Below, in pieces: positions 173-3,986 of a stretch of 11,299 bases of DNA. Source of the stretch: Nitrospinota bacterium (GTDB taxonomy: Bacteria > Nitrospinota_A > UBA7883); the NCBI GenBank assembly GCA_029880775.1, contig JAOUNV010000021.1, positions 1 to 11,299 on the forward strand. The letters are read 5' to 3'. The number at the start of each line of letters is the position of its first letter. Position 1 is the first letter of the stretch. The notes below the pieces were generated by a model. The model was not told the DNA's origin, did no database searches, and was given only the letters and a program-made list of their open reading frames with translations. The position numbers were made by a program, and so were the translations under genes.

Positions 173-655
173 ATGAAAATACCAACTACCTTGAAACATA
201 AGCCCGTTATCGTCGTAGAAAACTACGGTGAGGTTGATGGCCGCAATGCCTACAAAACTGACGCCCAGGGGCTCTCTCTCGGGCTCGCCCAGTGGAATGA
301 TCGCGGGAAAGTCGATATCTCCGCCAAAGTATGGCGGCATACCGGCGAAAAATGGTCCCGTCAGTCGGAGGAGCTTCCGCCTCACCGGGTCCTGGATTTG
401 GCGATTCTGGTGTGTCGCTCACGGCAGTACTTTTCGGAAGAAGCTTATCACCATAAAAAGCTCTACGACGAGAACAACACACGGATCGATCGGGTGCCGC
501 TGCAGGGCGACGCCATGACAGTGGAAGTGTGCACGGAGAATCCGATGCTCGACGAAGACATCGCGCTGTTCCAGAAAGCGCTGGGCGAAGATGACGAATT
601 GGTGGGTGAGCGGATGAAAGTGCTGGGCGGGATACTGCGCACATTGGGGTATTAA
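173..655 (+). CDS. Hypothetical protein, 160 aa, no family recognised
   Basis: Longest non-repetitive ORF in this region, with a balanced amino-acid composition, good GGAG ribosome-binding sites and an ATG start. The overlapping ORFs at 207-698(-) and 228-518(+) are Arg/Pro/Ser-rich and typical of high-GC shadow frames. The C-terminus is acidic (EDDELVGERMK). I recognise no motif. Confidence 0.6.
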   Translation: MKIPTTLKHKPVIVVENYGEVDGRNAYKTDAQGLSLGLAQWNDRGKVDISAKVWRHTGEKWSRQSEELPPHRVLDLAILVCRSRQYFSEEAYHHKKLYDENNTRIDRVPLQGDAMTVEVCTENPMLDEDIALFQKALGEDDELVGERMKVLGGILRTLGY

Positions 656-692: not shown

Positions 693-774
693 ACCCACAC
701 GTGGGTTGTATACCCGCTCGCGGGTTGTAAACAGGCTAGCCTGCCCGCTAGCGGGCTACAAAACCGCTAGCGGT
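693..774. repeat. Array of five adjacent GC-rich palindromes (possible operator array or REP-like element)
   Basis: Seen in sequence: ACCCAC-ac-GTGGGT (693-706), ACCCGC-tc-GCGGGT (712-725), CAGGCTAGCCTG (732-743), CCCGCTAGCGGG (744-755), ACCGCTAGCGGT (763-774). Three GCTAGC cores fall within 37 bp. Units 1 and 2 are each followed by TTGTA. Unit 4 is followed by CTACAA, the reverse complement of TTGTA. The array lies between the ORF1 stop (655) and the regulator start (885). Confidence 0.6.
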
Positions 775-1702: not shown

Positions 1703-3121
1703 ATGGGCGCTGTAGCTGAAGCGACGAAAGATTACATCATTAAGGACATCGCGCAGGCGGACCTGGGCCGCAAGGAGCTGGATATAGCCGAGCACGAGAT
1801 GCCGGGGCTGATGGCCACCCGCGAAAAGTATGGCAAAGAAAAACCGCTGAAGGGTGTGCGGATTACAGGCAGCCTGCATATGACCATACAGACCGCTGTG
1901 CTGATCGAGACGCTGGTGGAGCTGGGCGCCGATGTGCGCTGGGCCTCGTGCAACATATTCTCCACCCAGGATCACGCCGCCGCCGCCATCGCCGCGACGG
2001 GTGTGCCGGTCTTCGCCTGGAAGGGGGAGACCCTGGAAGAGTATTGGGACATGACCCTCAACGCGCTCTCTTTCCCAGACGGCAAGGGGCCGCAGCTTAT
2101 CGTGGATGACGGCGGAGACGCCACCCTGGTGATCCATCGTGGATACGCCGCGGAAAAGGACCCGTCCATCCTGGACGAGCCGACCGACAACAAGGAACTG
2201 CAAATCGTCAATAACCTGCTGAAGAAAACCTTGAAGGAGCGCCCCGGCTTCTGGGCCAATGTGGTCAAGGACTGGAAGGGCGTCTCTGAGGAGACCACCA
2301 CCGGCGTCCACCGGCTGTACCAGATGATGGAGCGGGGCGAGCTGCTGGTGCCTGCTATCAACGTCAACGACTCCGTGACCAAATCCAAGTTCGACAACCT
2401 GTATGGCTGCCGCGAGTCGCTGATCGACGGCATCAAGCGAGCCACCGACGTGATGGTGGCGGGCAAGGTGGCCGTGGTGTGCGGCTATGGCGATGTGGGC
2501 AAGGGATGCGCCCAAGCCCTGCGCGGCATGGGCGCGCGGGTGATCGTGACGGAGATCGACCCGATCTGCGCTCTGCAGGCGGCGATGGAAGGTTATCGCG
2601 TGACCACGGTGGAGGACGCCCTGCCGGAGGCGGATATATACGTCACCACCACGGGGAATAAGGACATCATCACCCTGGAGCATATGAAGAAGATGAAGAA
2701 CCAGGCGATCGTCAGCAACATCGGGCATTTCGATAACGAGATCCAGGTGGAAAAGCTGGACGAGTTCGCCGGCGCCAAGAAGACCAACATCAAGCCGCAG
2801 GTGGACAAGTACACCTTCGACGATGGGCGTGAAATATACATGCTGGCAGAAGGACGGCTGGTGAACCTGGGCTGCGCCACGGGCCACCCAAGCTTCGTGA
2901 TGAGCAACAGCTTCACCAACCAGACGCTGGCGCAGATCGACCTGTGGAAGAACAACTACGATGTGGGTGTCTACACCCTCTCCAAGGAGCTGGACGAGGA
3001 AGTGGCCCGCCTGCATCTGGGAAAGATCGGCGTGAAACTGACCACGCTTAGCAATGATCAGGCGGATTACCTGGGCGTGCCGGTGAACGGGCCGTACAAG
3101 CCATCGCACTACAGGTACTAG
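1703..3121 (+). CDS. ahcY: Adenosylhomocysteinase (S-adenosyl-L-homocysteine hydrolase), long bacterial form, 472 aa
   Basis: Diagnostic AhcY sequence throughout. The NAD-binding motif is [34 protein letters not shown]. Substrate-domain blocks are [13 protein letters not shown] and TTTGVHRL. The C-terminal KPSHYRY tail matches the family. A strong AAGGAG ribosome-binding site sits 8 nt upstream of the ATG. The 475-aa ORF on the opposite strand is a GC-driven shadow. Confidence 0.95.
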
Positions 3122-3168
3122 ATTCGAGCCTTCATTCGCATAAGAAAGTCAACGTCGGGTGTCATCTT

Positions 3169-3205
3169 CATAGTGAGCGAGGTTACTCAAGCCTCGCTCA
3201 CTATG
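3169..3205. terminator. Perfect 14-bp inverted repeat hairpin (CATAGTGAGCGAGG / CCTCGCTCACTATG, 9-nt loop) 48 bp after the ahcY stop
   Basis: Seen in sequence. The stem is perfect but no U-tract follows (GTATATCTCTC), so it is not a canonical intrinsic terminator. It could be a stabilising stem-loop, a protein-binding site, or a Rho-dependent or otherwise atypical terminator. Confidence 0.35.
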
Positions 3206-3560
3206 GTATATCTCTCAGGTCGTAATTATTCCCATTAAACCATTGAGCGCATAATGGATTTTTACAGCCCCAGTTCAACTTCAACATAAATAATTATATT
3301 GATTTTGTCATTGAAGCGGATGAATCACTTAACGGTAAAGTTCGAATATCACAATATAGTCGTGGTTTTATTTTCGCGGATTTAAATTCATCAAAGTCCC
3401 GAAGGATCAGAAGGCTAAATGCATATCCTCCTAACAATATGAATGGTATCCCTCAAAGTGACTGTGCGGCGGGATAAAATTAAACGACGCGAAAAACGGG
3501 ATCGTGAAACAACGGGCAACAGGTTTTTCAAGGCGCCTAGACCTGTGACCCATTAAATAA

Positions 3561-3636
3561 TGGTAGGCGGAGAGGGGATCGAACCCCCGACATCCAGCTT
3601 GTAAGGCTGGCGCTCTCCCAGCTGAGCTATCCGCCC
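3561..3636 (-). tRNA. tRNA-Val (anticodon UAC), CCA encoded
   Basis: Reverse complement gives GGGCGGA-TA-GCTC-AGCTGGGA-GAGC-G-CCAGC-CTTACAA-GCTGG-ATGTC-GGGGG-TTCGATC-CCCTC-TCCGCCT-A-CCA. This is a standard cloverleaf with a 7-bp acceptor stem (G1-U72 wobble), 4-bp D stem with GG in the loop, 5-bp anticodon stem, U33, anticodon TAC and purine at 37. The T-loop is TTCGATC and the 3' CCA is encoded. Confidence 0.9.
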
Positions 3637-3986
3637 ATTTATTTGATCACCGGCGCTTTCATAAATTTATGGAAGATAAGTAAAGCGAAATCGCTCCGTT
3701 ATTCTCCTTCAGGCCTGGAAAACATCGCTATTCTACACTGCCCCGACGCAAAAGCAAATTCTTCTTTAAAAGAGTGACGTGGGGCAGTCGCCTCCAATCC
3801 GCTGGCCACGATGATGGCCGGCGCCCTGCTGGTGATATGGCGCTGAGCCTTTTCACAATGTCGACCCAATACCGAAACAAGGCCCATGGCATTCCTCCGG
3901 CTGCAAAAGAGATACCTGATGGATGTGTGGTATGATGCGGGCGTATAAGTAAATATCTGAAATACTTTCTTGTCATTTTTCTATTT

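Follow-up and report, generated by a model that had tools for sequence, protein, structure and literature searches.

A possible strain-specific hairpin-repeat cluster of five packed palindromes between a DUF6530 gene and an HTH-ahcY operon in a Nitrospinota bacterium

Five short GC-rich dyads of 12-14 nt are packed, in a Nitrospinota bacterium, between a DUF6530 gene (ORF1; 173-655, plus strand) and the gene of an HTH_3 (XRE-type) regulator (885-1664), which is followed by the gene encoding S-adenosylhomocysteine hydrolase (ahcY, 1703-3121). This arrangement raises the question of whether the array is an operator platform for the neighbouring regulator, a copy of a dispersed palindromic repeat, or a structure generated locally. 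The window, by which we mean the whole stretch of 11,299 nucleotides that was analysed, is part of a 33-kb metagenome contig with the NCBI protein label 'Nitrospinota bacterium', and the array is known from this one metagenome assembly and one strain. All elements that a preliminary description had listed for the array were found as claimed, and the array is indeed not coding; it starts 38 nt past the DUF6530 stop codon, in the 3' region of that gene.

Architecture, non-randomness, and predicted folding of the array

The five dyads are located at 693-706, 712-725, 732-743, 743-756, and 762-775, and neither they nor the higher-order repeat that they form are assigned to a strand. The span of 693-774 given previously is correct at its start, but unit 5 occupies 762-775 and the array therefore ends at 775. 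Unit 1 (ACCCACACGTGGGT, 693-706) reads ACCCAC-AC-GTGGGT, with 6-bp arms and a 2-nt centre. It is followed by the linker TGTAT (707-711, plus strand), which forms TTGTA (706-710) together with the preceding T and lies within a 19-nt tandem repeat detected by TRF at 692-729. Unit 2 (ACCCGCTCGCGGGT, 712-725) reads ACCCGC-TC-GCGGGT and is set apart from unit 1 by a symmetric A>G / T>C substitution; the linker after it, TGTAAA (726-731, plus strand), again gives TTGTA at 725-729. Unit 3 (CAGGCTAGCCTG, 732-743) is a perfect 12-nt palindrome that has one base in common with unit 4 (GCCCGCTAGCGGGC, 743-756), a perfect 14-nt palindrome. The last linker, TACAA (757-761, minus strand), is TTGTA on the minus strand and thus runs opposite to the linkers that follow units 1 and 2, so the punctuation by TTGTA/TACAA motifs noted earlier is confirmed at all three places. 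Unit 5 (AACCGCTAGCGGTT, 762-775) is also a perfect 14-nt palindrome, and its right arm, GCGGTT, overlaps the start of a block shared with sibling strains.

The centres of units 1-5 are separated by 19, 19, 12, and 19 nt. At a higher level, an inverted repeat extends over 714-773, whose 27-nt arms (714-740 and 747-773) are 70% complementary and 6 nt apart, with U2-TTGTAAA-U3 facing U4-CTACAAA-U5 around a centre near 743/744. From this repeat and from the inverted recurrence of the TTGTA linker before unit 5, the array can be resolved into unit 1, a left half (unit 2, linker, unit 3), and an opposed right half (unit 4, linker, unit 5); that is, it consists of a tandem duplication plus an inverted duplication. 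The half-sites differ among the five units (ACCCAC, ACCCGC, CAGGCT, CCCGCT, and ACCGCT), and the unit-to-unit differences are symmetric changes only. The property that recurs among the units is dyad symmetry and not a recognition sequence.

The array is a real, non-random feature. The window of 11.3 kb contains three GCTAGC sites, all of them in the array, and the earlier observation of a triplicate GCTAGC holds, with the copies in units 3, 4, and 5 falling within 37 bp. Within a span of 100 bp, the window has five centres of palindromes with arms ≥6 and a spacer ≤2, a density that was compared with 300 dinucleotide-preserving shuffles under the same arm, spacer, and span settings. The largest cluster held 1-2 centres in 290 shuffles, 3 in 9, and 4 in 1, and none of the 300 reached five.

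RNA of the segment 685-790 is predicted to fold with -45.4 kcal/mol (z -3.5), for which 0 of 200 shuffles was equally stable, and the minus strand as single-stranded DNA gives a predicted z of -4.2. The strongest predicted hairpin, at 745-773 on the plus strand, has a perfect 10-bp stem (745-754/764-773) formed by unit 4 with unit 5, a 9-nt loop, and no U-tract after it; the segment 740-790, which holds this stem, has a predicted energy of -20.8 kcal/mol (z -4.25). Units 2, 4, and 5 have arms in common, which also allows alternative hairpins from neighbour to neighbour. Single units alone form stems of just 4-5 bp.

The earlier statement that these structures are not terminators is right for the canonical type. 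No T-run follows the array, the next bases being TCAACTCCCGCTTCACCCC; of the GC-rich stem-loop and U-tract of an intrinsic terminator, the stems are present and the U-tract is missing, with TTCAACTCCC after the last stem. A consensus terminator scan of 656-884 likewise gave no terminator-like site. An Rfam search of the whole window and of a small region yielded no family matching the array: between 640 and 900, nothing reached the gathering score, and the best matches scored 21.9 bits against a threshold of 33.2 (L31 leader) and 13.9 bits against 47 (tRNA-Sec). ARAGORN called no tRNA in the array region, 640-900.

A further structure was observed directly 3' of ahcY, where positions 3168-3206 form a perfect 17-bp stem (CATAGTGAGCGAGGTTA / TAACCTCGCTCACTATG-type; z -6.9) without a clean U-tract. 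In sibling strains, ahcY is followed instead by a textbook terminator with a 13-bp stem, a UUCG loop, and U8 (L132). Between ahcY and the next ORF of the window, there is an AT-rich stretch (3150-3640; GC 0.38-0.47), and a tRNA-Val(TAC) gene lies at 3561-3636 on the minus strand. The corresponding spacer of siblings is much shorter and contains no tRNA, which marks another rearrangement point.

The array and the conserved regulator block in related strains

The preliminary description had proposed a multi-operator platform for the adjacent HTH protein and had suggested conservation at orthologous loci as a check. The sibling set consisted of the loci of four other proteins that cluster with the regulator at 90% identity. 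The L132/L133/L136-L138 loci carry acyltransferase, regulator, and ahcY in this order, without DUF6530; in L130/L131, a divergent gyrA lies upstream of the regulator; and in L134/L135, the regulator is preceded by an AT-rich stretch beside a PIN-toxin gene. The regulator and ahcY genes of these siblings are ~87-90% identical to the window at the nucleotide level. Their upstream regions, however, align with the window only from ~770-776 rightwards (GCGGTTCAAC...), that is, from the end of unit 5, and no counterpart of the array was found in any of the three groups of loci. The array is also absent from L002, L003, and L005, the more distant relatives (regulator identity of 64-71%) that keep the regulator-ahcY pair, and ORF1 is kept beside the regulator in no relative examined. 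In the L132-type strains, where the co-directional acyltransferase gene is directly upstream, a GC-rich hairpin lacking a U-tract (ATGCCGG...CCGGCAT) takes the array's place; no such hairpin was found upstream of the block in L135 and L130, where the upstream gene is divergent.

The DNA-binding part of the regulator has hardly changed in these strains. The HTH domain is identical in P0243 and carries one conservative change in P0241/P0242, and its recognition region stays unchanged even in relatives with 64% identity. What accompanies it is a promoter/operator block at 776-842 on the plus strand, which is common to all relatives and abuts the array but lies outside it. CAAC (776-779), CAACA (797-801), TTATTG (808-813), and the -10 element TATAGT (835-840) are invariant in the block, and across regulator relatives of 64-100% protein identity the motif can be written as CAAC...CAACA-N6-TTATTG...TATAnT, with AAC-N5/6-GTT dyads. 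A promoter-like site occupies 813-840, its -35 lying 36 nt beyond the array end. The block is thus a credible operator candidate for the regulator and, as judged from sequence conservation, a better one than the array. The element CGTTATTGTGG was seen twice in the window, at 806-816 and at 843-853; the second copy is just past the -10, and other strains do not have it.

Is the array nevertheless an operator or iteron array for a dimeric DNA-binding protein, either the adjacent HTH-cyclase-like regulator or another? The dyads are perfect including their centres, their 19-bp spacing is regular, and unit 5 can be read as AAC-N8-GTT, which recalls the AAC-N5/6-GTT dyads of the conserved block. Moreover, tandem CCGCTAGCGG occurs in an iteron-like manner inside replication-initiator-like ORFs of some phage contigs, and such a palindrome is therefore plausible as a protein site. 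On the other hand, the array is missing in four other contexts in which an identical or nearly identical HTH domain and the promoter block persist, and the motif conserved with the regulator, at 776-842, is a different one. Only unit 5 has its terminal AAC/GTT triplets, at another spacing; the units otherwise bear no likeness to that motif. The half-sites vary between units; units 3 and 4 overlap with their centres 12 bp apart, which would hinder the binding of two dimers at once; and no similar site was seen elsewhere in the ~25 kb of contig covered. As for iterons, which are direct repeats in or beside an initiator gene, a replication-initiator gene is absent nearby, with no rep-like gene among the called neighbours. 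Since the motif at 776-842 travels with the regulator and the array does not, the operator-platform reading is unsupported. A protein-binding array of any kind is quite improbable. Siblings with the same regulator and no array make it more probable that the array is a local hairpin-repeat cluster than that it is the regulator's platform.

The phage copies deserve a separate remark. Tandem CCGCTAGCGG with a period of ~15 nt lies inside ORFs at L170 3345-3384 and L174 5484-5508, and these ORFs share the N-terminal sequence SWxAKGLxxYLxSRPPxW and resemble replication initiators, so the copies are probable origin iterons unrelated to the window.

This negative result on the operator is the more useful outcome of the analysis, compared with the structural reading discussed below. 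The array should not be annotated as an operator of the HTH regulator, and 776-842 is the place to seek the regulation of the widespread pair of the HTH/cyclase-like regulator and ahcY. In every locus examined (the window, L002, L005, and L130-L138), ahcY is immediately 3' of an HTH_3 regulator with a cyclase-like C-terminal part. The regulator has more than 900 homologues, whose source names include Nitrospinota, Omnitrophica, Sumerlaeota, Hydrogenedentes, and Phycisphaerae; homologues are labelled 'class 3 adenylate cyclase' at the source, and some have a precomputed PF00211 match. The protein is a candidate uncharacterised methyl-cycle regulator, and it might sense an adenine nucleoside. 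Its gene contains an in-frame 15-nt tandem repeat of ~3 copies at 1476-1518 (GGCTCTGGAGCCGTC), which encodes GSGAV repeats in the C-terminal half (residues ~198-211) and is indel-variable among siblings (259 vs 254 aa).

The intergenic region of one sibling lineage carries a repeat of its own. In L130 (5214-5274) and L131 (~3640-3750), a GC-rich 24-nt tandem repeat (GGCCCGTACGCGGACCGCGGCAAA) lies between the regulator -10 and the start codon, with 2.6 copies in one assembly and ~4.6 in the other. The hairpin core of this repeat, GCCCGTACGCGGGC, matches unit 4 of the array at 10 of 14 positions. Because this variable-copy repeat lies in the corresponding intergenic region of a sibling, local repeat generation is demonstrably ongoing at the locus.

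The DUF6530 junction and the mobile-element readings

On its other side, the array adjoins a gene of apparently different origin. The DUF6530 protein and its homologues across unrelated phyla (Clostridia, Candidatus Electryonea, and Nitrospinota) share 72-89% identity, and the gene is absent from sibling strains. Its promoter region, 85-172, is conserved with orthologues and contains TTGACA followed by TTTAGTAAATnACTAA, which is an inverted repeat at ~124-141. The cross-phylum identity and the conserved promoter of its own make DUF6530 probably an acquired module; a gene that has its own regulatory site and is missing in siblings suggests horizontal acquisition. Homology with the orthologue loci stops at the stop codon, and the array was rejected as a companion of the gene since none lies downstream of the orthologues at 89, 86, 84, and 81% identity. 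An assignment of DUF6530 as a DNA-binding protein or transposase was also dropped: it has no solved-structure relative, and the AlphaFold model, with a mean pLDDT of 47, is unusable. Compared with the L132-type strains, the interval from the acyltransferase stop codon to the conserved block carries an additional segment of ~0.8 kb in the window, namely DUF6530 and the array. The array, lying between the DUF6530 module and the regulator block, is thus junction DNA that separates two blocks of differing ancestry.

Other accessory genes were observed around the regulator. Upstream of the acyltransferase gene, L132 (168-7055) and L136 contain TCAD9 and AAA_3/AAA_lid_2 genes, which are conflict-system-like and thus make the regulator neighbourhood an accessory-gene hot spot. 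On the source contig past the window (L006 12700-21314), a minus-strand run includes Phage_tail_terminator, Phage_Mu_Gp36, and Laminin_G_3 genes, so a prophage or tail-like cluster begins ~1.5 kb beyond the window's right end.

A junction of this kind could by itself leave palindromes behind. In that case, the array would be a by-product without function: replication slippage or template switching at the junction of a rearrangement would have given rise to a palindromic repeat still too young to have decayed. It is a strain-specific singleton, built by tandem and inverted duplication, and sits exactly between the DUF6530 module, where homology ends at the stop codon, and the regulator block, where it resumes from ~772; the copy-number-variable GC-rich repeat in the corresponding intergenic region of a sibling lineage is in agreement with such an origin. 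All five units, however, keep perfect arms despite their sequence divergence, which points to either selection for the dyad or a very recent origin. We regard a purely neutral by-product as possible, albeit rather unlikely.

An alternative raised previously was that of a REP/BIME-like genomic repeat, for which the architecture proved suitable but the many dispersed copies were not seen within the limited sequence searched. On this view, a RAYT-like transposase acting in trans would have placed here one member of a dispersed REP/REPIN-type family of mobile palindromic elements, of which many others would be present in the host genome or in that of the DUF6530 donor. Its palindromes are extragenic and GC-rich, its linkers alternate in orientation, and a minus-strand GTAG stands directly before unit 4 (TTGTAGCCCGCTAGCGGG), a GTAG head being typical of many REPs. 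It also comprises two ~30-nt inverted halves able to form one long hairpin, and the arms 714-740/747-773 accord with the layout of a REPIN, in which two REP units are inverted and hairpin-capable (PMC3337134). The opposite edge of the strain-specific segment carries GCCCACATGCGGGC (L001 3530-3543), a related but imperfect palindrome.

No dispersal, however, was seen in the sequence covered. In ~25 kb of the source contig, there is neither a second copy, nor anything within 2 mismatches of any unit, nor a comparable palindrome cluster, and the genes called on the contig include no transposase or integrase and, in the 25 kb, no RAYT (Y1 transposase). Only unit 2 has matches in the sibling loci, three isolated ones with 2 mismatches (one locus in L132/L133/L135 and one in L002), and the array is missing there. 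Each of the 24 JGI metagenome matches to ACCCRCNNGYGGGTTGTAWAC, a 21-nt degenerate pattern over units 1 and 2, is a lone unit in an unrelated context, and the JGI samples with the sibling strains contributed none of them; as the window's own array is missing too, the source strain is evidently outside that collection. Matches in the genome collection include no Nitrospinota: a scan for CCGCTAGCGG-N2-30-CCGCTAGCGG returned more than 119 matches in unrelated, mostly high-GC taxa, none with the array architecture, and these CCGCTAGCGG matches are tandem repeats and hairpins that are uninformative. Two viral-contig scans gave unrelated sites only, some of them iteron-like CCGCTAGCGG, and blastn of 656-884 against plasmid and phage collections gave no match. 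The units of 12-14 nt are also short compared with REPs of ~21-65 nt, and the GTTCAA-TCCC similarity of the flanks does not reach significance (286/1000 shuffles). On the sequence covered, a dispersed REP/REPIN element is unlikely. A literature search for the palindrome sequences retrieved cloning primers only.

The capture of DUF6530 as a cassette could also have left a site-specific recombination site or scar, of an attC-like or att-like kind. The ~0.8-kb strain-specific segment consists of one ORF and a structured palindromic 3' end, an outer inverted repeat is formed by AGTTGA (679-684) and TCAACT (775-780), and synteny breaks at one point in four contexts. The coincident breakpoint, however, can be explained more simply as the edge of the constrained promoter block. 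The attC consensus is an imperfect palindrome that opens, 5' to 3', with RYYYAAC (R'') and closes with GTTRRRY (R'). Core sites of the attC type were located by eye at 680-686 (GTTGAGT) and 773-779 (GTTCAAC), and their order is reversed relative to attC on either strand, with GTTRRRY first and RYYYAAC last. No integrase was called on the contig, the direct repeat in the flanks does not reach significance, DUF6530 has a conserved promoter of its own in contrast to typical cassettes, and the five DUF6530 orthologue loci have no such structure downstream. An attC site was therefore rejected on the wrong core-site order, judged by eye against the consensus, and on the lack of an integrase on the contig. 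A tRNA-3'-half/att site was considered for GGTTCAACTCCCGCTTCACCCC and likewise rejected, as the T-arm pairing is non-canonical, no tRNA was called, and the left-edge similarity was reached in 286/1000 shuffles. A recombination site of either kind seems extremely improbable.

A structural reading and its relation to known systems

We consider, at a probability of roughly 0.45, that the array is a strain-specific local hairpin-repeat cluster whose function, if any, is that of a terminator, insulator, or stabiliser. It would have been generated locally by tandem (19-nt period) and inverted duplication, within the 3' untranslated region of an accessory and probably horizontally acquired DUF6530 gene and immediately before the conserved HTH-ahcY promoter/operator block. 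Its non-random arrangement, in which the 19-nt period and the higher-order inverted repeat combine with a recurring dyad symmetry, and its predicted folding, much stronger than that of shuffles, are consistent with this reading. So are the siblings, in which DUF6530 and the array are both missing and the alignment starts only at ~770-776, the U-less hairpins at the corresponding L132-type site and after ahcY, and the copy-variable 24-nt repeat in the corresponding sibling region.

Any function would most likely be exerted via nucleic-acid structure and not via sequence-specific recognition. Transcription that starts at the DUF6530 promoter is inferred to run into the array, where the RNA may form stable hairpins that could pause RNA polymerase, or partly terminate it without a U-tract, and could protect the mRNA 3' end. 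The regulated HTH-ahcY promoter, 36 nt farther on, could thereby be shielded from read-through. Several observations weigh against the local hairpin-repeat cluster. As a terminator it lacks a U-tract, yet the lineage makes canonical terminators (13-bp stem and U8, L132); three units are palindromic through a CTAG centre, which is unneeded for RNA hairpins and more typical of DNA-level dyads; single units form stems of only 4-5 bp; and a purely neutral origin fits the same facts. It is very unlikely that the array is instead a functional compact multi-palindrome platform of an undescribed kind, either as the site of a structure-specific or dimeric DNA-binding or recombination protein behind the DUF6530 capture or, together with the L130/L131 repeats, as a member of a lineage-specific short hairpin family that modulates the HTH-ahcY promoter in a strain-variable manner. 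If the structural reading of a local hairpin cluster is true, a newly acquired gene has been separated from a neighbouring regulated promoter by locally made hairpins, which would be of modest interest with regard to U-less termination and REP-like elements in the Nitrospinota, a poorly studied group.

The array can be compared with four known systems. XRE/Cro-type operator arrays such as lambda OR1-3 also place tandem dyads by an HTH_3 gene and upstream of a promoter; in the present array, however, the half-sites are unconserved and two units overlap, and the array is absent beside the same regulator elsewhere, where another motif accompanies the regulator. With intrinsic terminators, including the U-less 'I-shaped' ones, it shares stable GC-rich hairpins after a stop codon and before the next promoter, and this lineage has further U-less hairpins at gene ends. 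It differs from them in lacking a U-tract, in offering many short alternative hairpins instead of one, and in having perfect central dyads that RNA folding does not explain. The 19-nt period, as well as the 24-nt repeat of the sibling in the same intergenic region, recalls intergenic variable-number tandem repeats, from which the array is distinguished by having only about two clean tandem copies, the remainder being an inverted duplication.

Compared with the BIME/REP clusters and REPINs of enterobacteria and pseudomonads, the units are just 12-14 nt long and perfect palindromes, and the array is confined to a single locus in a single strain, with no other copy in the sequence searched and no RAYT seen. 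In form, however, it resembles a small BIME/REPIN-like cluster: its extragenic GC-rich units are joined by short linkers in alternating orientation, its halves fold into one long hairpin as those of REPINs do, and it lies downstream of a gene, a position in which REPs affect mRNA stability and termination.
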